From Candidatus Peregrinibacteria bacterium (GTDB lineage Bacteria > Patescibacteriota > Gracilibacteria > Peribacterales > Peribacteraceae): a stretch of DNA of 60,456 nt. A model generated the notes under the pieces. That model worked only from the letters and a program-made list of their open reading frames with translations, searched no databases and was not told where the DNA came from. Shown piece after piece: positions 4,869 through 46,831 of the stretch (position 1 is its first letter; every line of letters begins with the position of its first letter). Made by a program: the position numbers and the translations under genes. Location of the stretch: NCBI GenBank assembly GCA_016178535.1, contig JACOTD010000078.1, positions 1-60,456 on the forward strand, given 5' to 3'.

Positions 4869-5010
4869 TGGTTTGTTTGCTGTTTCTGTTTCCTCTCCCC
4901 CCGACCCCCTCTCCGATGGAGAGGGGGCGAAATGTTCCATTGTGCGAATTCTCCCCTCCTCCCTCGGAGGAGGGGCAGGGGGTGGAGGAAAACAACAAAC
5001 AACCCCAACA
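4869..5010. repeat. G/C-hairpin MITE-like element, family A, copy A1 (3' of gyrA)
   Basis: The termini gtttgtttgctgtttctgttt ... aaaacaacaaacaacc are inverted. Two perfect 10-bp hairpins are present: ccccctctcc-gat-ggagaggggg (4905-4927) and cccctcctcc-ctc-ggaggagggg (4953-4975), followed by gggggtggagg. It is homologous to 20813-20965 and related to 16606-16885 and 56076-56120. Confidence 0.8.
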
Positions 5011-5053: not shown

Positions 5054-5266
5054 ATGAAACCCGCCATTCACCCCACGATGCATGAGAAAGCGAAGACGAC
5101 CTGTGTCTCCTGTGGCGCCGTGTACCTCATCCCGAGCACGGTCAAAGCACAGACGGTCGAGGTGTGCCGTGCGTGCCATCCGATCTACACGGGCAAGGCG
5201 CAGAAAGATCTGAAGGGCGGCCGCGTCGACCGCTTCCGCAAGCGCATGGCGAAGGGGAAGAAGTGA
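5054..5266 (+). CDS. rpmE: 50S ribosomal protein L31
   Basis: 70 aa: MKPAIHPTMHEKAKTTCVSCGAVYLIPSTVKAQTVEVCRACHPIYTGKAQK..GRVDRFRKR. The CxxC...CxxH zinc motif and the L31 signature are present. Confidence 0.95.
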   Translation: MKPAIHPTMHEKAKTTCVSCGAVYLIPSTVKAQTVEVCRACHPIYTGKAQKDLKGGRVDRFRKRMAKGKK

Positions 5267-5343
5267 TCAAGCGTGGTCATGGCGTTCGTTCGTTGACCAC
5301 TCTTTTGTCAAAGGTGTATAATCAGTGTTACATCTTCTCATAC

Positions 5344-5535
5344 ATGCCGCAGTTCTCCCTTCGCAGGCTCGAAAAAGATCTTGCCGCGGCGCCGCGAGAA
5401 CAGCAGCGCGTTTTTTTGGCACATCTGCCGCAAATTCTGGATCTTGCGCCGTCCGATGTTGTTCTCCTCAAAGCTTCCGAGCCGTCGTTCGAATTCTGGA
5501 ATAATTCCGATGATGCGATCTATGACTCCCTTTGA
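5344..5535 (+). CDS. Putative antitoxin partnering the downstream MazF/PemK toxin
   Basis: 63 aa from the ATG at 5344 (MPQFSLRRLEKDL...SFEFWNNSDDAIYDSL). It overlaps the start of the MazF-like gene by 14 nt. An acidic ...W.N..DA.YD tail is common in small antitoxins. The family is not identified. Confidence 0.5.
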   Translation: MPQFSLRRLEKDLAAAPREQQRVFLAHLPQILDLAPSDVVLLKASEPSFEFWNNSDDAIYDSL

Positions 5536-5866
5536 ACCGGGAGATATCGTGCTCGTGCTCTTCCCCTTCACGGATTTTTCGACAGCCAAGCAGCGTCCGT
5601 GCGTTGTGCTTTCTTCCTCCCGATTCAACCGTTCCCATCGTGACGTGATCCTTGCGGCCATCACATCCAACGTCCACGATCGCCCCGATGAGAACGAGTA
5701 CCTCTTGACTGATCGCGAGCAGCAGATGTGCGGCCTTCCCAAAGTTTCCATGATCAAGGCCGCGAAGATCGTGACGGTTGATCAACGCTTGGTTCGTGTG
5801 AGGCTTGGCCGTCTCCCCGCTGCGTCTCTCCAGCGTATCCGTTCTCTGGTGCATCGCATCATTTGA
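5522..5866 (+). CDS. mazF: MazF/PemK-family type II toxin (mRNA interferase)
   Basis: MTPFEPGDIVLVLFPFTDFSTAKQRPCVVLSS...DVILAAITSNV...MIKAAKIVTVDQRLV. This is the canonical PemK/MazF SH3-like core (GD-V-F-...-KxRP-V-S). Confidence 0.85.
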   Translation: MTPFEPGDIVLVLFPFTDFSTAKQRPCVVLSSSRFNRSHRDVILAAITSNVHDRPDENEYLLTDREQQMCGLPKVSMIKAAKIVTVDQRLVRVRLGRLPAASLQRIRSLVHRII

Positions 5867-5878
5867 GACGAGAAAGCC

Positions 5879-5923
5879 CGCCGCGTGGATCGTTTCCGCA
5901 TGGCGAAGGGGAAGAAGGAGTGA
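5879..5923 (+). repeat. Relic second copy of the rpmE 3' end
   Basis: gcccgccgcgtggatcgtttccgcatggcgaaggggaagaaggagtga matches rpmE 5219-5266 (ggccgcgtcgaccgcttccgcaagcgcatggcgaaggggaagaagtga), apart from a 6-nt gap and a few substitutions. It would translate as ARRVDRFRMAKGKKE*. Confidence 0.75.
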
Positions 5924-7096: not shown

Positions 7097-7262
7097 AAAT
7101 GGAAAATGGATAATTGACCCCTCGACACGGCTCAGGATCACTCGCAGATTATTTGCATCACGAACATGTGTCACACTGAGCGAGGTCGAAGTGTGACAAT
7201 TATGGCAGGAATTCTCGTATCTGTATCGCTTCCAACATTATCCATTTTCAATTTTCATACTA
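7097..7262. repeat. Composite REP-like element, family B, copy B2
   Basis: Order of parts: aaatggaaaatggataattgac, then cccctcgacacggctcaggatcac (7118-7141), a 28-nt spacer, then gtcacactgagcgaggtcgaagtgtgac (7170-7197), aattatggcagg, and finally ccattttcaattttca words. The architecture matches 13396-13552 and, inverted, 15809-15985. Confidence 0.75.
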
Positions 7263-13395: not shown

Positions 13396-13552
13396 GGAAC
13401 AATGGAAAATTGACCCTTCGACACGGCTCAGGGTCACTTGGAGATAACTTTCATAGCTGGATTAGGGGTCATACTGAGCGAAGTCGAAGTGTGAAAATTA
13501 TGGAAGCGATTTAAGACTTGGCACTTCCTTCTCCATTTTCAATTATCAATTT
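13396..13552. repeat. Composite REP-like element, family B, copy B3 (glyA 5' region)
   Basis: ggaaaattgac, then cccttcgacacggctcagggtcac (13414-13437), a 30-nt spacer, then gtcatactgagcgaagtcgaagtgtga (13468-13494), aaattatggaagcg, and finally ccattttcaattatcaattttcaattgtcaattttt words. Confidence 0.75.
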
Positions 13553-20812: not shown

Positions 20813-20965
20813 GTGTTTGTTGTTTGTGTTTTCCTCTATCCCCCATCCCCTTTCTCCGGGGGAGAAAGGGGGGGCCTCAACAATTTGTGTTTTTGGAAAT
20901 TCTCCCCTCCTCCATCGGAGGAGGGGTCGGGGGTGGAGGTTGGACAAAAAATACAAAACAAACAT
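20813..20965. repeat. G/C-hairpin MITE-like element, family A, copy A3 (3' of dcd)
   Basis: gtgtttgttgtttgtgtttt ... aaaatacaaaacaaaca termini. Hairpin 1 is cccctttctc-cgggg-gagaaagggg (20846-20870). Hairpin 2 is cccctcctcc-atc-ggaggagggg (20903-20925), followed by tcgggggtggagg. It is collinear with A1. Confidence 0.8.
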
Positions 20966-21840: not shown

Positions 21841-21917
21841 GGACGATTAGCTCAGTTGGTTAGAGCGTGCGACTCACATTCGCAAGGTCACTGGTTCGAA
21901 CCCAGTATCGTCCACCA
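21841..21917 (+). tRNA. tRNA-Val (anticodon CAC), CCA encoded
   Basis: Manual cloverleaf: acceptor GGACGAT/ATCGTCC, D arm GCTC-AGTTGGTTA-GAGC, anticodon arm TGCGA-CTCACAT-TCGCA, variable loop AGGTC, T arm ACTGG-TTCGAAC-CCAGT, then discriminator A plus CCA. Confidence 0.9.
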
Positions 21918-22188
21918 TTCTGGATGTTCGTCATTCGCAAGGTCTCAGCCCAGGCTGATCGAACCCAGTATCGTCCACCATTCTGGATGTTCGTCATTCG
22001 CAAGGTCTCAGCCCAGGCTGATCGAACCCAGTATCGTCCACCATTCTGGATGTTCGTCATTCGCAAGGTCTCAGCCCAGGCTGATCGAACCCAGCCAGGC
22101 TGATCGAACCCAGTATCGTCCACCATTCTGGATGTTCGTCATTCGCAAGGTCTCAGCCCAGGCTGATCGAACCCAGTATCGTCCACCA
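21918..22188 (+). repeat. Tandem array of four 63-nt units, each a degenerate copy of the tRNA-Val 3' half
   Basis: The unit ttctggatgttcgtcattcgcaaggtctcagcccaggctgatcgaacccagtatcgtccacca occurs at 21918-21980, 21981-22043, 22044-22125 (with a 19-nt internal duplication, ccaggctgatcgaacccag) and 22126-22188. cattcgcaaggtc and cgaacccagtatcgtccacca are identical to tRNA positions 21877-21889 and 21897-21917. Confidence 0.9.
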
Positions 22189-22282
22189 TTCGACCGCCTG
22201 AGGCGGACTCATGGCAAGCCATTTGATTTGAATTTGTCCTCAGAACACAGTGCAGAATACATTGACGTACCCCGTGCCCGCT

Positions 22283-38345: not shown

Positions 38346-39991
38346 TGATGTCACCTCTCACACTGCGTCGGTTGGAGTCGAACACCCGCCTCATCGCGAA
38401 TCCGTCGCGCCAGACGATGATCGACGATGTGATGAACGCCCGTGAAGCGATTGTCACAAAAACGGGAGCGCTCGCCGCATGGTTCCCCTCAACCGACACC
38501 GGTCGCATCCCCAAAGACACGTACATCGTGAAGCACGGACCGAGCGTCGAAGCCGTCGACTGGACATCTCCGAATGCGCATCCGATGACGCCGGAGATGT
38601 TCGATTGTCTGTTCGATCAAGCACTGGAGATTCTCTCTGCCAAGCGGAAACTCTACGTCCTCGACCGCAGCGTTGGGGCGCAGGAGCAGTACGCGTTGCC
38701 GCTGAAAGTGATGACGGACAGTCCGCTGACGTCGCTCTTCGCCGACACGATGTTTCGGCCATGCTTCGACAGGGCTCAGCATGACAGTTCCAAGAGCGTC
38801 TTCGCCGATCAACCGTTCACGCTCCTCGTGCTTCCGCACGATCCTCTTCGCACGGAAAACTTCGAAGGAGAACTCCGTATCGAGCATGGAGCCATCGTTC
38901 CTCGTGTCGTCGCGATGGACATGGAGCGGCGAATGGGGATCGTGCTGGGGACGAAGTACCTCGGCGCCGTCAAGAAAACGCTCTTCACCGCGATGAATCA
39001 TCTCTTGCCCGATCACGGCGTGCTTCCGCTCCACTGCTCTGCGGTCTCGGACAACTGCGGGGAGACCCATCTCTTCCTCGGGCTCTCGGGGACGGGCAAG
39101 ACGACGCTTTCGACCGCAGCGAATCTCTCGCTCATCGGCGATGACGAGCATCTGTGGTCGAGTGACGGCATCGCGAACATCGAGAACGGCTGCTACGCCA
39201 AGCTCATCCGCTTGAGCACAGAGAAGGAGCCGCAGATTTACGAAGCGGCCTTCGGATCACGCTCGAATGTCACCAATGGCGTCATCATCGAGAATACGAT
39301 GGTCTACCCCGATGGCAGCGTCGACTTGGACGACGATCGTCTTACAGAAAACTCCCGCGCGGCCTACCCGCTCTCGTTCCTCGAGAACACCGTTCCTTCC
39401 GCAACCGGAAGCCATCCGCAAACGATCCTCTTCCTCACCGCCGATGCCGAAGGAGTCCTTCCGCCCATCAGCAAACTGACGCTCCATCAGGCGCTGCTGT
39501 GGTTCCTCATGGGCTACACGAGCAAGCTCGCGGGAACCGAGACGGGCGTGATCGAACCGCAGCCGAACTTCTCCCGCTTCTTCGGCGCGCCGTTCATGCT
39601 CAGGAGACCGCACGACTATCTCGATCTCTTCCAGAAGTTCGTCACCGCGCATGGAAGCGATATCTATTTGGTCAATACTGGGTGGGCGGGAGGCCCGTAC
39701 GGAGTCGGGAAGAGGATGGATATTTCTCTGACGCGCTCGCTCGTCACCTCCGCTCTCACGGGCGCGCTCGAGAGCGTTCCGTACCGTGAAGACCGCCGCT
39801 TCCATCTCTTCGTCCCGGAGAGTTGTCCGGGCATCGATCCGATGCTCCTGAATCCAGAACGTCAGTGGAGCGATCGTGATGCATACGCCAGGAGGGCCGA
39901 CGCGCTCGCGGCAAAATTCGCGGCGACCTTCGAGAAGAATTTCGGCGGAACCGTCGCGGAAGAAATCGCGAGGGAATGTCCTGGGAGATAA
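38345..39991 (+). CDS. pckA: Phosphoenolpyruvate carboxykinase (ATP)
   Basis: The kinase-1a P-loop is FLGLSGTGKTTLS, followed by LIGDDEHLWS, and the ATP-type PEPCK C-terminal NTGWAGGPYGVGKRM. The ATG at 38345 overlaps the aminotransferase stop (TGATG). Confidence 0.92.
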   Translation: MMSPLTLRRLESNTRLIANPSRQTMIDDVMNAREAIVTKTGALAAWFPSTDTGRIPKDTYIVKHGPSVEAVDWTSPNAHPMTPEMFDCLFDQALEILSAKRKLYVLDRSVGAQEQYALPLKVMTDSPLTSLFADTMFRPCFDRAQHDSSKSVFADQPFTLLVLPHDPLRTENFEGELRIEHGAIVPRVVAMDMERRMGIVLGTKYLGAVKKTLFTAMNHLLPDHGVLPLHCSAVSDNCGETHLFLGLSGTGKTTLSTAANLSLIGDDEHLWSSDGIANIENGCYAKLIRLSTEKEPQIYEAAFGSRSNVTNGVIIENTMVYPDGSVDLDDDRLTENSRAAYPLSFLENTVPSATGSHPQTILFLTADAEGVLPPISKLTLHQALLWFLMGYTSKLAGTETGVIEPQPNFSRFFGAPFMLRRPHDYLDLFQKFVTAHGSDIYLVNTGWAGGPYGVGKRMDISLTRSLVTSALTGALESVPYREDRRFHLFVPESCPGIDPMLLNPERQWSDRDAYARRADALAAKFAATFEKNFGGTVAEEIARECPGR

Positions 39992-40039: not shown

Positions 40040-41539
40040 ATGCGCGATATTTTCGATCACGAACGGCTCAGTCCTGCCGTTTCTGGATTGTTGCCAAGCA
40101 TGAATCCTTGGTGGGAAGGAAAGCCAGCCAAGCCGCAACCGCCCTTTCATCGATGGGCGTTTTCCATCACGAAGAAGAAACTCGATTCCGACCTCGCGCC
40201 GATCGTTGTGATACGCGGACCGAGGCAGGTGGGGAAAACCACCCTTCAAATGCAGCTCATCGAACACTACATCAAGGACAGAGGCATCGATCCTTCGCGC
40301 ATACTTCGTGTGCAATTCGACGACCTTCCCTCGTTGAGAGAATTGGCAGATCCCATACTGTCCATTGGTCGTTGGTTTGAAAGTCGCGTGTTGAAGCGAA
40401 CATTCAATCAGGCCGCCACAGACGGACAGCCAGCTTTCCTGTTCTTCGATGAAATACAGAACATCGCCGATTGGGCGATTCAGCTTAAATCTCTTGTCGA
40501 TACTCATCGCGTAAAAGTTCTGGTTACCGGCAGTTCGGCGCTACGAATGACCGCTGGAAAGGACAGCTTGGCAGGTCGCATTGCACAAGTGGATCTCGGC
40601 ACGTTGCTTCTGCGGGAAATCGCCGGCATTCGCTACGGGGAAACCATTGAGCCGCACTTGCCCCATAATGGACTTGATCCTTTACTCCTTCCAGATTTCT
40701 GGCGATCGTTGCAGCAGTATGGACTCAAGAATCGGGAAATCCGCGACCGCGCCTTCAGTGCTTTTTCGGCGAGAGGAGGCTATCCCATCGCTCATGTTCG
40801 CGAAGAGACACCATGGCCGGAAATCGCCGAGCAACTCAATGAGAACGTCGTGAAGCGCGCCATTCAGCACGATCTTCGGATCGGGGAGCGCGGCAAACGG
40901 AGAAACCAGGGGCTGCTCGAGGAGGTTTTCCTGCTCGCCTCCCGATACGTCGGCCAATCGCCCGGGCAGGCCGTATTCGTTCAGGAGGTGCGCAGCGCGC
41001 TTCGAGCAAGTGTGAGCTGGGACAAAATCCGGAATTATCTGAAATTCCTGGATTCCGCTCTTCTCTTGAAGCTCATCGAACCCTTGGAGCTTCGACTGAA
41101 GAAGAAAAAGGGGAATTATAAACTCTGCATCTGCGATCACGGGCTCCGAGCCAGCTGGCTGCGCGAAGTGGTTCCCCTCGATCCCGTCGCATTGCAACGC
41201 CTGAGTCATCTGAGCGATCTCGCGGGACATATTGCAGAGAGCGTCGTGGGGTATTTTCTCGCGGGTTTGCCCAACATGAGTATCAACCATTTCCCCGAAC
41301 GAGACATTGAGCCGGAAATCGACTTTATCCTCACCGTCGGCGCGCATCGCATTCCCGTCGAAGTGAAGTATCGGCAACGCATCGATCCCCACAGAGACAC
41401 CTTGGGGCTGCGGGCCTTTCTCGAGAAGACCGTGTACAACGCTCCGTTCGGCATTCTTGTGACCCTCGATGATACCATTGAAATTCCCGATGCTCGGATC
41501 ATCCCCATCTCCTTGCGGTCATTGTTGCTTCTGCGTTGA
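40040..41539 (+). CDS. COG1373-type AAA+ ATPase (AAA_14 plus a DUF4143-like C-terminal domain)
   Basis: NPWWEGKP...IVVIRGPRQVGKTTLQMQLI (Walker A) and AFLFFDEIQNIADW (Walker B). The C-terminal region with IAESVVGYFL...EIDFILT...IPVEVKY is typical of DUF4143 PD-(D/E)xK-like ends. Confidence 0.8.
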   Translation: MRDIFDHERLSPAVSGLLPSMNPWWEGKPAKPQPPFHRWAFSITKKKLDSDLAPIVVIRGPRQVGKTTLQMQLIEHYIKDRGIDPSRILRVQFDDLPSLRELADPILSIGRWFESRVLKRTFNQAATDGQPAFLFFDEIQNIADWAIQLKSLVDTHRVKVLVTGSSALRMTAGKDSLAGRIAQVDLGTLLLREIAGIRYGETIEPHLPHNGLDPLLLPDFWRSLQQYGLKNREIRDRAFSAFSARGGYPIAHVREETPWPEIAEQLNENVVKRAIQHDLRIGERGKRRNQGLLEEVFLLASRYVGQSPGQAVFVQEVRSALRASVSWDKIRNYLKFLDSALLLKLIEPLELRLKKKKGNYKLCICDHGLRASWLREVVPLDPVALQRLSHLSDLAGHIAESVVGYFLAGLPNMSINHFPERDIEPEIDFILTVGAHRIPVEVKYRQRIDPHRDTLGLRAFLEKTVYNAPFGILVTLDDTIEIPDARIIPISLRSLLLLR

Positions 41540-41560: not shown

Positions 41561-41637
41561 AAATCCGCGGCGACCTTCGAGAAGAATTTCGGCGGAACCG
41601 TCGCGGAAGAAATCGCGAGGGAATGTCTGGGGAGGTA
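41561..41637 (+). repeat. Relic second copy of the pckA 3' end (~77 nt)
   Basis: aaatccgcggcgaccttcgagaagaatttcggcggaaccgtcgcggaagaaatcgcgagggaatgtctggggaggtag is near-identical to pckA 39914-39991 (aaattcgcggcgaccttcgagaag...gagggaatgtcctgggagataa). Confidence 0.9.
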
Positions 41638-41648
41638 GGAGATCAACT

Positions 41649-44048
41649 TTACCTTTGAGGATTGGAATTGCTATCCACAGACATACGTCGTTCTTCCGTG
41701 GGATACAATTTTTTCAGCACCAATCCCCATGCCTGATGTTGTCGTTCGGATTGGGATGCCACTCGGATTTGTTCAAGGCGTGAACGCAATTCATTCACAA
41801 GTCTGCGCACGTAAGTGTCTCCGCATTCCACCGTATCAAGCCATCGCCAGGCAATTTCACCGGACAGAATTTTTCTCATGTCTGGCATGGTTACTTCCCA
41901 TGGCTGTTTGCCAAGTTTTCCTGCAACGCCTTCGATGTCGGTACGGAAATCTGCAATTGCCTGAGGATCATCCAATAGAGATTCTTCTGAACGAATCACA
42001 CCTGTTCTATGGGTACTTCTCTGTTCTTCGATAAGGGTGCGTATCGCGCGTTCGAATTGCTCTTCGCTTTCCCAGTGGAGACGCCTGCAATTGAACATCG
42101 TACGCATATTCTTGCTATTCACTCTTCCTACGTATTCGTCAGTTCCTCTTGGTTGTCGCGTGAAGAACGCTGCCATGTACGAGTCATCGTTGAGAATGAA
42201 TTGCAGGGAAAGCTGAGGCAGAGTCACCACGATGTGGTGCCCGTGATGAATGGTAGAATAATCGCGTTGCTGCGTATCAGTTGTATCTGCTCCATCCGTG
42301 TCCCACGCGAATTCTGCGCTTTCACGCTGCTGCAGCAGTACTTTGTGAAGACAGGCAAGTCGAGGCATTGATGTTCTCCTTCCCCCAGGTGTTCCTTCTT
42401 GTGCGTGATCGCTACCATCGCCATCCACCGCATCTGTTTGTCGTTCTCGCGAAAGATATATTCCCTCAACATCATTCGAGTGCAGCAGCCGAGACTCCAG
42501 TGTCCGTAAAGAAGGTACACTCATTGCCGACCACTGATCTTTATCAGCTGCGTTGATGCCCGCGATGAGAAATGTCGCGCTAATGTTGTTCGAGTCTTCA
42601 TCAACGGCGCCGGGCAATTGTGGTTTAGTCGTCGAACCTGGATACAGAATATGGACGAAATCTTGAAATTCGACGAATATGCATGAACGAAGCAACTCCT
42701 CTTGCTCCTTCCATTGAGGACAAAGTATTTCGAGCATTCTCTGCATACGACCTGCAAGTCGCGGCAAATTCTCCTTGATCGCAATTGTTTTCTCCAGAAT
42801 TGGAGATGGAAAGGAGAGAGGCGGAATCCAATTTTTATTGCCTGTCATTTGAACATCATCTGGGGATGCAGTGATACCATTTCCGTTATCTGATCTTATA
42901 AGCGACAAAGTACGTTCTTTCGTCTCAGAGAAGCGGACTCCATTGTCACTATCCTTCCAACCATAAGTACCAATGAGATGAGGCAGATTTCTTTTGGCTC
43001 GAATTGACGGCAGATACCCATGGGGAAATCTTGAAAGTATTCCATGTGCAATCTCTACGTTTGCGCATTCTTGTTCAAAATTGTTGAAAGTATCACGTAC
43101 AGCGCCAATTGCATTGCCATAATGCGATGACGATTGCCCAAATTGATGCATTTCTCCATCATTGAGCGGGTCTTTCGCGTGCTTGGGCCGCCGCATTTCC
43201 CAATTTTGATTTTGCGTTTGCAAAAGACGGCGAAACGCTGCTTGTTTCTCTGCGGGGGGAATTGGAAGTTTGCCAAATGCATGGCGCAACATCGATGTCA
43301 AAAATACTACCGAAAAAATTCTTGGATCAATAGTACCAGGTTCAATGATGTCAATGATTTTCTCCATGCATCGAATGCTTATGGCAATAAGCGCCGTGAG
43401 AAATTCTTCTGGAGACAAACTCGGCATTACCGTTCCAATTTCCATTGCGATTGACTCACTGATTTCCTTAGTAAGATCATGCAGTGTTGCCCGTGTTATC
43501 CCTACGCCCATTCGCACACTCTCTCCATTTTCCGTTGTTGTTACCCTTATTCCTTGATAGATCTGATTGATGGTCTCGCATCGTATTGCTATTGCTGGGT
43601 CCAGAACATCCATGATCGGAGCAATTCTCAATCGATCATTCATGAGCTGAGTCTTGGTATCGTCGCGCAATTTTTGAAGACTGATTCTTTCAGTATGATC
43701 ATCCATCATCAAATTTGCTACCATGAGCGGGTAGAGAGCCTTTTCTCTCAGTCTTTCCGAGGATTCTACGGATCTGGTTGGAACAGTTGGATCATCAGTT
43801 GTCTCTGAATCATTTGATATCGCAACTTGTGGGTTCAGCACATTACCAACTTCATGCCGTGCGGTTAAGCGCTCCCGCTCCAATCGTTGACCCAATTCCT
43901 CTTCAATTGCTCGCAGCAAAGTCTCTTCGTCGGGAGCCAGCGTCTTGCCTTTACGAACACGCCGAGGATCATCTCGTTTGCCTTCCAGTTGTTCTTTTTT
44001 ACGTCGCAATAAAGTTGTCTCTGACGAGGCTATTTGGTCTAGTTTCAT
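41649..44048 (-). CDS. Hypothetical protein, 799 aa, AT-richer foreign composition, no recognisable domain
   Basis: Clean 2.4-kb ORF with an ATG at 44048. Codon usage is visibly A/T3-rich, unlike the flanking genes. No TM or signal peptide is present. The N-terminus is charged and coiled-coil-like (KKEQLEGKRDDPRRVRKGK...EEELGQRLERERL). Confidence 0.7.
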   Translation of the reverse strand: MKLDQIASSETTLLRRKKEQLEGKRDDPRRVRKGKTLAPDEETLLRAIEEELGQRLERERLTARHEVGNVLNPQVAISNDSETTDDPTVPTRSVESSERLREKALYPLMVANLMMDDHTERISLQKLRDDTKTQLMNDRLRIAPIMDVLDPAIAIRCETINQIYQGIRVTTTENGESVRMGVGITRATLHDLTKEISESIAMEIGTVMPSLSPEEFLTALIAISIRCMEKIIDIIEPGTIDPRIFSVVFLTSMLRHAFGKLPIPPAEKQAAFRRLLQTQNQNWEMRRPKHAKDPLNDGEMHQFGQSSSHYGNAIGAVRDTFNNFEQECANVEIAHGILSRFPHGYLPSIRAKRNLPHLIGTYGWKDSDNGVRFSETKERTLSLIRSDNGNGITASPDDVQMTGNKNWIPPLSFPSPILEKTIAIKENLPRLAGRMQRMLEILCPQWKEQEELLRSCIFVEFQDFVHILYPGSTTKPQLPGAVDEDSNNISATFLIAGINAADKDQWSAMSVPSLRTLESRLLHSNDVEGIYLSRERQTDAVDGDGSDHAQEGTPGGRRTSMPRLACLHKVLLQQRESAEFAWDTDGADTTDTQQRDYSTIHHGHHIVVTLPQLSLQFILNDDSYMAAFFTRQPRGTDEYVGRVNSKNMRTMFNCRRLHWESEEQFERAIRTLIEEQRSTHRTGVIRSEESLLDDPQAIADFRTDIEGVAGKLGKQPWEVTMPDMRKILSGEIAWRWLDTVECGDTYVRRLVNELRSRLEQIRVASQSERQHQAWGLVLKKLYPTEERRMSVDSNSNPQR

Positions 44049-44054
44049 ATTGAT

Positions 44055-44083
44055 ATATTAATCTATAAATTCTTTAGAGTCAA
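44055..44083 (-). promoter_or_regulatory. Sigma-70-like promoter for the 799-aa gene (candidate leaderless transcript)
   Basis: On the minus strand: TTGACT (44083-44078), a 17-nt spacer, TAATAT (44060-44055), then atcaat and the ATG at 44048. No Shine-Dalgarno sequence fits in the 6 nt between. Confidence 0.4.
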
Positions 44084-44116
44084 CAAAGGCTTTTTGCCTT
44101 CCTTAAGCACTCTTTA

Positions 44117-44236
44117 ACCCCGGCACCTTCTGCTTCAGAAGCTCCACGACGGCGTCCAAATCTTCATTCACCATGATGTGATCGAAGAGATCCTTTCGCT
44201 CGGAAAAGAAGTCGAGGTCTTTCTCCCATTCTTCTG
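44117..44236 (-). repeat. Relic second copy (~120 nt) of the 3' end of the DUF35-GK gene
   Basis: aaccccggcaccttctgcttcagaagctccacgacggcgtccaaatcttcattcaccatgatgtgatcgaagagatcctttcgctcggaaaagaagtcgaggtctttctcccattcttc versus 44770-44890. About eight differences were counted by eye, including a 1-nt gap. Confidence 0.9.
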
Positions 44237-44325
44237 GACGAGTTTTTTGCGGGTTCCTGATTGACATGCACTAAAAGCTTGCATAGAATTGTCTCATTAG
44301 TGGCTTCGGCCTCCGAGGACTCCGC

Positions 44326-44730
44326 TCACGCGGGGTCCGATTTTATATACGAGGCGATGCATGCACGAACGGAAGTGAATTCTTTGGTGGAGATCATGCC
44401 GATTTTTCGAAGGAGCCGTTTACTGCTGATCGTTCGGAGTTGCGACAAGCAAGCGAATGAAACTCCCCGATCATGAGCAATCCGATGATAGTGCTTGCCG
44501 AATCGTTTCTTCGATGTGAGTGGGATAACCCACAGCATGTATCCGTTGAATTTTTTCACAATGAGAACGGGGCGCTCAAAGTGATCGTTCTTCCCGTCAC
44601 TCTCCACTCCCACATTGATCCCAATTGAGCACCACCACACTTCTCGTTCATGAAAAAATACCGTCCGCTTGTCTTCCTGGGCGTCGAGCTTCTTTTTCAT
44701 GCTGTTCCATTGATCGAAGAGTTTTTGCAT
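44326..44730 (-). CDS. PemK/MazF-like toxin, solitary (no adjacent antitoxin ORF)
   Basis: 134 aa: WNSMKKKLDAQEDKRTVFFHEREVWWCSIGINVGVESDGKNDHFERPVLIVKKFNGYMLWVIPLTSKK. This matches the long-form PemK/MazF pattern (..WW...G.N.G.E.dGk...f.RPvlI..kf). It is AT-richer than the host genes. Confidence 0.7.
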   Translation of the reverse strand: MQKLFDQWNSMKKKLDAQEDKRTVFFHEREVWWCSIGINVGVESDGKNDHFERPVLIVKKFNGYMLWVIPLTSKKRFGKHYHRIAHDRGVSFACLSQLRTISSKRLLRKIGMISTKEFTSVRACIASYIKSDPA

Positions 44731-44757
44731 ATCGGCTCACGGCATGAATCTTCAGTG

Positions 44758-45711
44758 TCACGCCCCCCTCAATCCCGGCACCTTCTGCTTCAGAAGCTCC
44801 ACGACGGCGTCCACGTCTTCATTCACCATGATGTGATCGAAGAGGTCTTTGCGCTCGGAAAAGAAGTCGAGGTCCTTCTCCGCATTCTTCAGGCGGTCGG
44901 CGATGTGCTCTTCGGTGTCGCGGCCTCTTGTTCGGAGTCTGTGCAATAAATGACTCAGCATCGCCCGCTTGCTGTTGCCGGGCGGGAGGAGGCCGCAGGA
45001 GAGGATGGAGCGGCGGCCGTACTGTTCGGCGAGGCCTTGGAGCAAGTGCATCTCGGTGATGACGACGGGAATTTTCCCCGCCTTCCAAATGCGCTCGATG
45101 TCCTGCGCGCGGTAGCCGTACAGACGGTCTTCGGATGAGGAAGGGATCTGCGTGCTCGCGATGATCTCGCCTCGGCTCTGGAGTTCAGCGAAGGTTTTCT
45201 TGGCAATGTAGCGATACTCGCCGTCGTCTCCCGCTTTCTTCCTGCGCGTCGTGTGGATCGGCACGTTCTCGAGGTAGCTGGAACACATCTGAACGAGGAG
45301 GCGGCTGATGGTGGATTTTCCCACGCCCGAGGGGCCAGTCAGTGCAAGAATGTATCCAGGGAAGTTCGGCACTTCCTTCGAAACGGGCAGACGTTGTTTC
45401 GTTGTCTCGTTGTGTTGTTGCTTGTCTTGCGATGCAGGTTCGAATGCGACGTCATACATTCGGAGCTTCTCTCCATTGATTCGAGAAAGTCTCATGCGGG
45501 GGAGAACGGCGTCACCAATCGAACAGGGGGCCGTGAGAGGCGCGAGAACGTTGGAGCCGTCTTCGAGCGCGATGAGGGCGATGCGCCGCGGGAATTTCCC
45601 AAAGGCTGCAGGCGGATGCAGGAGGGTCGTCACGGAGACGACGGTGCCGGGCTGCATCTTGCTCCCGCGCTGCTTGAGCGCACGGTGAAGGGAAGGCGAC
45701 GTGTCAGTCAT
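44758..45711 (-). CDS. Fusion protein: DUF35-type OB-fold domain (thiolase/HMG-CoA-synthase partner) plus a guanylate-kinase-like P-loop domain
   Basis: The N-terminal part GTVVSVTTLLHPPAAFGKFPRRIALIALEDGSNVLAPLTAPCSIGDAVLPRMRL fits the DUF35 OB fold, and no Zn-ribbon Cys pairs are present. The C-terminal part LTGPSGVGKSTISRLL...IHTTRRKKAGDDGEYRYI...LYGY...NEDVD fits a guanylate-kinase-like fold. The ATG at 45711 overlaps the thiolase stop by 8 nt. Confidence 0.75.
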   Translation of the reverse strand: MTDTSPSLHRALKQRGSKMQPGTVVSVTTLLHPPAAFGKFPRRIALIALEDGSNVLAPLTAPCSIGDAVLPRMRLSRINGEKLRMYDVAFEPASQDKQQHNETTKQRLPVSKEVPNFPGYILALTGPSGVGKSTISRLLVQMCSSYLENVPIHTTRRKKAGDDGEYRYIAKKTFAELQSRGEIIASTQIPSSSEDRLYGYRAQDIERIWKAGKIPVVITEMHLLQGLAEQYGRRSILSCGLLPPGNSKRAMLSHLLHRLRTRGRDTEEHIADRLKNAEKDLDFFSERKDLFDHIMVNEDVDAVVELLKQKVPGLRGA

Positions 45712-46831
45712 GCATGCGTTCGAGGATATGTATACCACAGCTCGCGCACGCGCCGCCGAAATTATGCGCCATTCCCCACCTCTCTTCGCGCTCTGTCAAC
45801 TGCTTCGCGAGGTCGTTCAGCTGCTTGATGCCGGTGGCGGCGACGGGGTGTCCGCAGCCTTTGAGTCCACCGCTCGCGTTGATGGCGAAGCGCGTCTTCT
45901 TCCCTTCGTACAAATCCTTGTAGAGCGAAATTCCCTCGCCCGGGTTCGCAAAGCCCAGATCTTCCAGGTTGATGAGAGCGGCGATGGAGAAGCAGTCGTG
46001 GGTCTCGAGGCACGAGAGATCGTCGAGCGTGATGTCGGCTTCTTTCAGCGCTCTCCCACAGGCATCCCTCGACGCCGGGAAGCTCGTGATGGACGGACGC
46101 TTCGTGATGCTGACGGCATCGGAGGCGATGCTCGAGGCGGCGAGACGGAATTCGCTCTCGTGATTGGTCGAGAGGATGCAGGCGGCGCCGCCGTCGCTGA
46201 TGGGGGAGCAATCGAGGAGGCGGAGCGGATCGGCCACGAGCGGGCTTTTGGAAACCGCTTCCGGCGTGATGACGTTTCGAAACTGCGCGAAGAGATTCCC
46301 TTTCGCATTCCTGTGATGTACGGCGGAGACGAGGCTCAGCTCTTCCCGCGTGAGGCCGTGCTCGTGCATGTAGCGCGCGGCGATGAGTCCGAAGATACCG
46401 GGGAACGTGAGGCCCGATGGACGATCTTCTTCGCTGTCCGCTGCAACCATCAGCCCCGCGGCGATGGCATCGACGGAGACGTCGGTCATTTTCTCCGCTC
46501 CGACGACGAGCACCGTCTTCGCTCTGCCGCTCTCGAGGAACGCGCACGCCGTGTGAAGGGCGTACGCCCCCGACCCGCAGGCGGATTCCACCCGGATGGC
46601 GGGCGGGCGGTGAGGGAGCAAGGCCGAAACGAGCGAGCCGAGGTGCGCTTGGCTGCTCGTCACTTCTCCGAGCATATTGCTCACGATGATGGCATCAATC
46701 TCCAGAGCCGTGATGCGCGAGGAATCGATGGCCGCCGTCACGGCTTCCTCAATGAGATCCATCAAACTTTTGTCCCATCGCTCGCCGAAGCGGGTTTGGC
46801 CTTGGCCGATGAGGGAGATGGAAGTGTTCAA
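45704..46831 (-). CDS. Archaeal-type acetyl-CoA C-acetyltransferase (thiolase)
   Basis: 375 aa: VESACGSGAYALHTA (nucleophile Cys), ...ETHDCFSIAAL, GGLKGCGHPVAATG, and NFGGACAS. This is the short thiolase form that pairs with HMG-CoA synthase and DUF35. Confidence 0.88.
   Translation of the reverse strand: MNTSISLIGQGQTRFGERWDKSLMDLIEEAVTAAIDSSRITALEIDAIIVSNMLGEVTSSQAHLGSLVSALLPHRPPAIRVESACGSGAYALHTACAFLESGRAKTVLVVGAEKMTDVSVDAIAAGLMVAADSEEDRPSGLTFPGIFGLIAARYMHEHGLTREELSLVSAVHHRNAKGNLFAQFRNVITPEAVSKSPLVADPLRLLDCSPISDGGAACILSTNHESEFRLAASSIASDAVSITKRPSITSFPASRDACGRALKEADITLDDLSCLETHDCFSIAALINLEDLGFANPGEGISLYKDLYEGKKTRFAINASGGLKGCGHPVAATGIKQLNDLAKQLTEREERWGMAHNFGGACASCGIHILERMHD

Follow-up and report, generated by a model that had tools for sequence, protein, structure and literature searches.

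A MazF-fold toxin gene and a predicted convergent small RNA gene between duplicated ends of a host gene in a Peribacteria genome

The window considered here is a whole contig of 60,456 nt (JACOTD010000078.1, positions 1 to 60,456, forward strand) from Candidatus Peregrinibacteria bacterium (assembly GCA_016178535.1), a metagenome-assembled genome (MAG) of the Peribacteria, within the candidate phyla radiation (CPR), which spans 1.25 Mb in 92 contigs and is 97.5% complete. The locus under study lies at the 3' end of a gene for a DUF35 (OB-fold)–guanylate-kinase-like protein (GK gene), which is the last gene of a mevalonate operon encoding HMG-CoA reductase (HMGR), HMG-CoA synthase, and thiolase, and which has orthologues in 19 of 24 family genomes. 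The end of the GK gene is present twice, and a MazF-fold toxin gene and a predicted small RNA (sRNA) gene lie between the two copies. Read in the direction of GK transcription, the features are:

44758 to 45738 (start probably 45711), minus strand: DUF35 (OB-fold)–guanylate-kinase-like gene (Pfam Guanylate_kin, 1.8e-16; OB_ChsH2_C)
44762 to 44893, minus strand: proximal repeat copy, the coding 3' end of the GK gene (repeat search, blastn, and MAFFT)
44731 to 44757, minus strand: spacer of 27 nt from the GK stop codon to the toxin ATG, with no promoter-like site (consensus scan)
44326 to 44730, minus strand: toxin gene of the MazF/PemK fold, 134 aa, extended at the N-terminus by a conserved helix (Pfam PemK_toxin, PF02452, 1.9e-11)
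44296 to 44348, plus strand: predicted sRNA of ~50 nt, convergent with the toxin gene (covariance model, promoter, and terminator)
44261 to 44289, plus strand: predicted sRNA promoter, TTGACA-17 nt-TAGAAT, matching 11 of 12 consensus positions (consensus scan)
44238 to 44260, no strand assigned: tail of 23 nt between the sRNA promoter and the distal repeat
44103 to 44237, minus strand: distal copy of the GK end, 5'-truncated, with a 1-nt deletion near its 5' edge and its own in-register stop codon (alignments)

A repeat search aligns 44107–44226 with 44762–44881 (120 nt, ungapped, 91% identity, spacing 655); blastn extends the match to 44116–44237 against 44771–44893 (92.7% over 123 columns, with one 1-nt gap), and a MAFFT alignment of the copies agrees with both. 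Exact runs common to the two copies reach 40 nt, and their stop codons are in register (TAA at 44103–44105 and TGA at 44758–44760), the distal copy being contained in a 54-codon open reading frame (ORF; 44103..44267). Because self-comparison of the 1.25-Mb genome reveals no further copy, the repeat is far beyond chance. The inserted unit is 655 bp, comprising the 27-nt spacer, the toxin gene, the convergent sRNA gene, the 23-nt tail, and one copy of the GK end. An earlier, model-generated reading of the letters (the sequence-only reading) had described a duplication of the GK 3' end around a MazF-like cassette whose ORF begins 27 nt past the GK stop; all three alignments reproduce the duplication (91–93% identity), and the position of the ORF is as described. 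The same reading held that the 533 bp between the copies contain the toxin ORF only, and that the toxin is solitary. Both statements have to be revised, as a conserved convergent sRNA gene is predicted on the plus strand of the same interval.

An AlphaFold model of the 134-aa toxin, computed with 32 homologues, has a mean predicted local distance difference test score (pLDDT) of 79, and the top 50 Foldseek matches to it are all MazF-family toxins (TM score 0.6–0.7 for the top ones). Relative to canonical MazF, both the model and the family alignment contain an extra N-terminal helix; the window toxin retains every invariant residue of its family. Relatives are encoded in at least 579 species-representative genomes, the best 80 of which are almost all Patescibacteria, and an exact look-up of the protein returned no second assembly of the locus. 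A protein antitoxin was considered for the cassette and rejected: the toxin gene follows the GK stop codon after just 27 nt, and neither the 54-aa ORF over the distal copy nor the other small ORFs have family matches. Likewise, no protein antitoxin gene adjoins the toxin homologues at the two further loci inspected (L026 and L027). A consensus scan finds no promoter-like site ahead of the toxin gene, including inside the proximal repeat, unlike many toxin homologues, in which a −10 box lies within a few bases upstream of the ATG. Since no such site is present, it is plausible that the toxin is transcribed by read-through from the mevalonate operon, in line with the co-transcription envisaged by the sequence-only reading.

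The predicted sRNA gene is read toward the toxin gene and overlaps the last ~22 nt of its ORF. A GC-rich hairpin and U-tract (44317–44348) lie 28 nt beyond the promoter, the terminator hairpin itself occupying 44317–44338. The predicted transcript, both ends of which are likewise predictions, has the layout 5'-AUUAGU, a hairpin GGC-UUCG-GCC (44302–44311), UCCGA, a variable stem of 8–11 bp with a tetraloop, and GAUUUUU-3'. A covariance model built from 54 loci matches the window at 44291–44351 (61.5 bits, E 2e-19), which is its sole match in the genome. The model also matches ~80 of 84 homologous toxin loci, always antisense and always abutting or overlapping the toxin 3' end, with overlap at 60 of 62 loci. 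In an alignment fitted to the covariance model, which favours pairing, 97.8% of cells are paired, both helices covary, and there are 161 double-changed cells compared with 41 in shuffles (none of 500 shuffles reaches 161); RNAalifold applied to an independent MAFFT alignment finds compensatory changes in eight of 11 pairs. Of 66 homologous loci, 63 have the pattern TTGnnn-16–18 nt-TAnnnT directly upstream of the element, a pattern seen in 6.5% of shuffled sequences.

Conservation across this region is stronger in the RNA element than in the protein. The antisense hairpin of the window recurs at the three closest homologous loci examined, where the DNA past the toxin stop codon is more conserved than the coding sequence (CCTCGGAGGCCGAAGCCACTAAT is invariant, and the proteins are 65–70% identical). 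Across Patescibacteria, the half of the element that does not form the terminator (AUUAGU-GGCUUCGGCC-UCCGA) hardly varies, against a protein identity of only 45–70%. Gene callers translate the element in two different frames, ending in …GVLGGRSH and …SAGSSEAEATN; conservation therefore acts at the nucleotide level. The U-tract is present on the antisense side only. In a reciprocal test, the model has matches in five of 60 other family genomes, and all four that could be evaluated lie beside a MazF-like gene convergent with the sRNA; one of these genes carries an apparent frameshift. At this last locus (L124, G004:C11:611304–614363), the MazF-like gene is recovered by tblastn as two pieces in different frames, whereas the partner sRNA still scores 54 bits; this may represent toxin decay with the RNA retained.

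We interpret the element as a genuine sRNA gene that partners the toxin, its transcript being predicted, and the sRNA as a probable antitoxin or regulator of the toxin. No Rfam 15 family corresponds to it in the window (E up to 10) or at 20 related loci (E up to 0.1). The possibility that the sRNA mimics part of an rRNA or tRNA encoded in this genome was also considered and rejected, only chance 10–12-mers being found. The sequence-only reading had pointed to 44237–44325 as an interval in which a small ORF or an antisense RNA might neutralise the toxin: the candidate antisense sRNA begins there, whereas the small ORFs have no family matches. It had further reasoned that an antitoxin together with a recombinase would mark an ordinary mobile toxin-antitoxin (TA) cassette; the cassette offers a candidate RNA antitoxin, but the window encodes no recombinase.

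A less probable view, although one that deserves to be taken seriously, is that the element is only a terminator or insulator, or a cis-acting element of the 3' untranslated region of the toxin mRNA, and that the toxin is controlled otherwise, for example by its N-terminal helix. Weighing against the sRNA interpretation, the main role of the conserved hairpin and U-tract could be to end transcription or to cause interference between the convergent transcripts. Half of the element consists of a commonplace GC-rich hairpin with a U-tract, and the N-terminal helix, conserved in this family, has no counterpart in canonical MazF. Against the terminator view stand the positionally conserved −35/−10 pair directed into the element, the confinement of the U-tract to the antisense side, and the near-invariance of the non-terminator half beside a much more variable protein. 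The absence of a protein antitoxin gene also argues against it.

Judged against known TA systems, the proposed sRNA–toxin pair combines features of several types. The MazF fold and the PemK_toxin match are shared with type II MazEF/PemIK; the upstream protein antitoxin of those systems is absent from the window and from the homologous loci inspected, and an extra N-terminal helix and a convergent sRNA are found instead. Type I systems in which an antisense RNA covers the 3' end of the toxin mRNA include txpA/RatA and bsrG/SR4 of Bacillus subtilis, and enzyme toxins are paired with antisense RNAs in SymE/SymR and RalR/RalA. As in these systems, a small cis-encoded convergent RNA, here a predicted one, overlaps the toxin 3' end, and in this respect the candidate sRNA resembles 3'-overlapping type I systems. 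The toxins of those systems are mostly small membrane peptides, and none is known to be a MazF-fold RNase; furthermore, pure antisense pairing of the type I kind would not require a near-invariant sRNA sequence. The near-invariance of the single-stranded segments is more in keeping with recognition by a conserved partner protein, as in type III systems (ToxIN, CptIN, and TenpIN), in which a structured RNA neutralises an endoribonuclease toxin with a related fold, a role that is only a candidate one here. Type III antitoxins, however, consist of tandem repeats upstream of the toxin gene, on the same strand and processed by the toxin, whereas the present RNA is a single unit, downstream, on the opposite strand, and with its own predicted promoter; a repeat search finds no tandem repeats inside the GK cassette. 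The pemK RNA motif is a candidate structured RNA near pemK genes, located upstream of them in Firmicutes; it and the window sRNA are both conserved structures beside PemK-family genes, and differ in this upstream position.

The arrangement at the GK gene recurs. The sequence-only reading had noted the same duplication of gene ends at pckA and rpmE, and both instances are upheld (77 nt, 95% identity at pckA; 21 nt exact, and longer with an indel, at rpmE). The features of these loci, and of the orphan gene adjoining the GK cassette, are:

39914 to 39990, plus strand: pckA 3' end, proximal copy of the second duplication
40040 to 41539, plus strand: AAA_14/DUF4143 ATPase gene, cargo of the pckA duplication (Pfam; matches PADLOC candidate defence family PDC-S01)
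41561 to 41637, plus strand: pckA 3' end, distal copy, 77 nt, 95% identical
44055 to 44083, minus strand: promoter-like site for the orphan gene 41649..44048 (799 aa), immediately past the distal GK copy (consensus scan)
5243 to 5263, plus strand: rpmE 3' end, proximal copy of the third duplication
5897 to 5917, plus strand: rpmE distal copy, with homology from ~5880 and a 6-nt indel

The rpmE cassette encodes a type II pair, that is, a canonical antitoxin of ~63 aa (~5345–5536) and a PemK toxin (5522–5866), under its own promoter (TTGACC...TATAAT, ~5294–5323). Self-comparison of the genome reveals further locally unique brackets on other contigs, on which gene calls are crude (longest ORF): three copies of a gene end on contig C2, the secY end and, in a second bracket, the adk 5' end on C16, a gene end on C43, 41 nt on C86, identical copies of 59 nt on C88, and brackets on C47, C72 (81 nt), and C90. 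Across these many different targets the repeats range from 21 to 130 nt. On the other contigs the cargo includes HicA/HicB, ParE, PIN with Phd, HepT, Zeta toxin, and DUF3800; the bracketed cargo in this genome consists nearly entirely of TA or defence genes. At the secY–adk junction (C16:14608–16319), two tandem copies of the secY 3' end lie 82 bp apart with no cargo, and a second duplication, of the first 78 nt of adk (86% identity; eight synonymous and two non-synonymous codon differences), surrounds a ParE toxin and a putative antitoxin.

MazF–sRNA modules elsewhere in the CPR show the same arrangement in part. Between seven and nine of 80 are bracketed by 30–107-nt duplications of their own local target, whether the 3' end of the upstream gene, the 5' end of the downstream gene, or intergenic DNA; the bracketed inserts share no terminal motif. 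No flanking repeats are found at the three closest toxin homologues. Some bracketed loci (L096, 1156–1500; L099, 578–684) have an additional, truncated MazF N-terminus or an additional segment resembling the sRNA promoter, which suggests tandem or nested copies of the module.

The pckA and GK genes converge on a 4.8-kb stretch of lower GC content (0.44–0.55, compared with ~0.60 in the flanks), so that the insert and the adjoining island lie 10–15% below their surroundings. The order within it is the pckA end, the AAA_14/DUF4143 ATPase gene, the second pckA end, the 799-aa orphan gene, the distal GK end, the sRNA, MazF, and the GK gene. The orphan gene is present in only three of 60 family genomes and has no homology to the genes at the same site in G001, a genome of the same genus. 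In G001, pckA and GK also converge, and the intervening DNA is unrelated to that of the window; there is a single GK end, with neither MazF nor sRNA, which makes this an empty-type site, although not a clean one, the DNA downstream of GK being unrelated. The pckA–GK site is an insertion hot spot. In G001 (L023, G001:C61, 6819–8087), three copies of the last ~36 nt of pckA enclose two short segments whose ORFs have no known function, in the manner of a cassette array. Relatives closer than G001 were not found: a metagenome scan with the GK protein gave at most 63% identity, and the best protein-search match was G001 itself (83–86%). Among at least 20 GK loci, the distal GK copy is most similar to the window's own gene, then to that of G001.

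The differences between the GK copies bear on how the duplication arose. Over 40 homologous codons there are eight synonymous and three non-synonymous differences (proportions of differing sites pS 0.34 and pN 0.056). Changes in the distal lineage, polarised with G001, are mostly synonymous or at third positions and lower the GC content of third codon positions (6 vs. 2). Given ~3 synonymous changes in the proximal copy, a neutral distal copy would be expected to have ~12 non-synonymous changes, compared with three or four seen. The ratios of synonymous to non-synonymous differences in other pairs are 8:2 (adk), 3:0 (C86), 1:2 (pckA), and 1:6 (C43). The synonymous bias at GK and adk indicates that both copies apparently diverged while coding, and therefore that two alleles from related lineages were joined; this suggests that the GK copies are two functional alleles brought together by recombination, rather than one gene end and a copy decaying in situ. 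The rpmE distal copy keeps an ancestral extra codon (as in G001) and the native overlap with the ATG of the next gene, and the distal pckA copies of G001 keep the ancestral terminus, the proximal copy being novel. The polarity at these two loci fits the expectation for incoming DNA that brings a replacement end.

Homology-driven integration of the Campbell type is, from these comparisons, the most likely route, and one we consider somewhat better than an even prospect. Incoming DNA from a related lineage, circularised or excised, would carry a homologous GK end beside the cassette. One crossover between the resident and the incoming GK end would then insert the 655-bp unit. As the insertion would take place at the very end of the GK gene, it would keep the gene intact and displace a second copy of its last ~130 nt, and no element-encoded recombinase would be needed. 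The cargo thereby acquired would be a two-part addiction or defence module, in which the toxin is read through from the operon and the sRNA is the probable antitoxin or regulator, acting either on the toxin mRNA through base pairing (type I-like) or on the toxin protein through direct binding (type III-like).

Several observations weigh against this route. The codon argument comprises 11 differing codons and a fairly distant outgroup (G001, pS ~0.5), and the pckA and C43 pairs look like neutral decay, such that duplication in situ may act as well or instead. The GK proximal terminus resembles that of G001, which is the opposite of the polarity at rpmE and at G001 pckA, and the repeat agrees with G001 in a mosaic fashion along its length; neither a crossover point nor a native copy can therefore be assigned. 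RecA-type recombination works poorly on a ~130-bp stretch with 91% identity. Neither a circular form nor a donor genome for the cassette was found, with no closer relatives among the genomes searched, and ~90% of MazF–sRNA modules have no flanking repeat.

Long target duplication in situ, the main rival to this route, is an unlikely but coherent alternative: staggered breaks ~130 bp apart, or template switching during replication or repair, would generate identical copies, of which the distal one then drifted. Several brackets are indeed 97–100% identical (C88, 59 nt; C72, 81 nt; rpmE, 21 nt), the differences at pckA and C43 are mostly non-synonymous, as in a decaying copy, and the published restriction-modification (R-M) cases are described as target duplications (PMC2853133). 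At GK, however, only three of the 11 differing codons are non-synonymous, the distal changes are mostly at third positions, and non-synonymous changes fall well short of the neutral expectation given above; the adk pair has the same synonymous bias. Staggered cuts 20–130 bp apart are also not known from any enzyme.

Still less probable is a cassette that is the remnant of, or mobilised in trans by, an integrase system with an attachment (att) site in the gene 3' end, whether by accretion, as in cis-mobilizable elements (CIMEs), or in an integron-like array. Gene-end arrays do exist (the three pckA-end copies in G001 have a common core of ~30 nt), the tRNA-Val gene in the window is followed by tandem copies of its own 3' end, and five recombinases are encoded elsewhere in the genome (one tyrosine recombinase and four of the large serine type, none of them on this contig). 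In the tRNA-Val(cac) region itself (21841–22191), the gene is followed by four tandem units of 63–82 nt, each consisting of the tRNA 3' end (GGTTCGAACCCAGTATCGTCCACCA...) and a spacer, which look like stacked att-site remnants or the outcome of repeated integration and excision. By contrast, at least eight unrelated targets with repeats of 21–130 nt would have to be attributed to a 1.25-Mb genome with one tyrosine recombinase, and large serine recombinases leave identities of only ~2 bp. The insert ends have no common motif, repeat boundaries vary for the same target (36 vs. 77 nt at pckA), and the cassettes examined have no integrase inside them or nearby. Site-specific integration is disfavoured because of these diverse targets, variable repeat lengths, differing pckA boundaries, and the lack of a common motif. 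An integrase-borne element with attL and attR sites was rejected on similar grounds: the window has no recombinase, the boundaries are variable, and the ends share no motif. Profile searches (Phage_integrase, Resolvase, and RVT) find no tyrosine or serine recombinase, transposase-like, or reverse transcriptase (RT) gene on the contig. As for an integron, the contig has no IntI-like gene, and the boundaries are copies of host gene ends rather than a common attC-like palindrome (no dedicated attC model was used).

An assembly artefact, that is, a chimeric join of two strain variants, is very improbable: the genome is a 92-contig MAG and the GK copies have exact common runs of up to 40 nt, but the junction between the tail and the distal copy has no upstream GK homology, and hence no common k-mer to cause the join, and the same architecture is found at many loci here, in the independently assembled G001, and in at least seven MAGs from other studies. 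A template/variable repeat pair of a diversity-generating retroelement (DGR) was also rejected, as the sequence-only reading had argued from mismatches that are not adenine-specific and from the lack of an RT: only three or four of the 11 GK mismatches have A in one copy, and RT genes are confined to C3, C33, and C64. Bona fide DGR pairs do occur in this genome, at C33:22277–22888 (117 nt) and C64:10931–11656 (115 nt), differing almost only where the downstream copy has A; the associated RT genes are at C33:21026–21652 and C64:9713–10315, and the third RT gene is on C3.

The proposed homology-driven capture at gene ends has a partial precedent in Campbell-type insertion-duplication and in elements that integrate at gene 3' ends and bring a replacement end, such as phage 21 in icd and ICESt1 or CIMEs in fda. 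As in those elements, the target gene remains intact, a displaced and slightly different end lies beyond the insert, and arrays arise by accretion. They depend on a dedicated integrase, their own or borrowed, and on a fixed core, whereas the GK-type cassettes have no integrase, many targets, and variable boundaries.

The closest known phenomenon is the insertion of R-M genes with long target duplication (Nobusato et al., 2000; Furuta, Abe and Kobayashi, 2010, PMC2853133). Those insertions are selfish, addiction-type units of <20 kb that lack a mobility gene and are bounded on both sides by direct repeats longer than 30 bp, whose length varies (46–420 bp), often with a deviant insert GC content (PMC2853133). 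Their repeats are single-copy in the empty-site genome, locally unique, and often span a start or stop codon (PMC2853133); they are known mostly from naturally competent bacteria, and the mechanism was left open (PMC2853133). The GK locus agrees with all of the structural criteria of Furuta et al. apart from cargo type: its repeats exceed 30 bp and are single-copy in G001, and the insert, at 655 bp, is far below 20 kb and has no linked mobility gene, while the cargo is not a restriction and modification gene pair but a PemK/MazF toxin with an sRNA. Elsewhere in this genome the cargo includes type II TA pairs, and the host belongs to the CPR, also unlike the R-M cases. The GK repeats differ further in their divergence of 9% and its synonymous bias, a pattern that speaks for recombination between two alleles. 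As late as 2014, a review attributed long target duplication to R-M systems alone (PMC3874152), and in the limited set of literature that we searched there are no TA cassettes with long target duplication in the CPR and no MazF-fold toxin with a convergent sRNA partner.

Two other repeats in the window lie apart from these cassettes. At 7105–7213 and 13401–13511, two adjacent segments (54 and 44 nt, 85–86% identical) are repeated 6.3 kb apart ahead of two long plus-strand ORFs and may represent a duplicated promoter or leader region. A 49-nt repeat (88% identical) at 4940–4988 and 20891–20939 includes a GC-rich palindrome (CCCCTCCTCC...GGAGGAGGGG); G001 has dozens of matches to the region 4870–5010, which is therefore a dispersed repeat family.

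Taken together, the widespread "solitary" MazF toxins of Patescibacteria may constitute a new kind of TA system, with a conserved, single-copy, convergent RNA antitoxin of ~50 nt (a UUCG hairpin, an invariant UCCGAG, and a terminator), that spreads without a recombinase by homologous capture at gene ends and leaves long target duplications; we put this combined proposal forward tentatively, at a little under an even chance. Tiny CPR genomes have few classical mobile elements, yet they contain variable islands. The GK locus, and at least eight similar ones in a single 1.25-Mb genome, would represent recurrent, recombinase-free landing of TA and defence cassettes at gene boundaries with the host gene unbroken, extending to such cassettes a phenomenon known only for R-M genes. 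The large "orphan" MazF family would not be orphan, as a conserved sRNA gene appears to travel along with it, and gene calls in which the RNA element is translated as an extension of the protein's C-terminus are corrected accordingly. If the proposal is true, the family would provide a candidate RNA-controlled MazF-fold toxin, bridging type II toxins with the antitoxin logic of types I and III.

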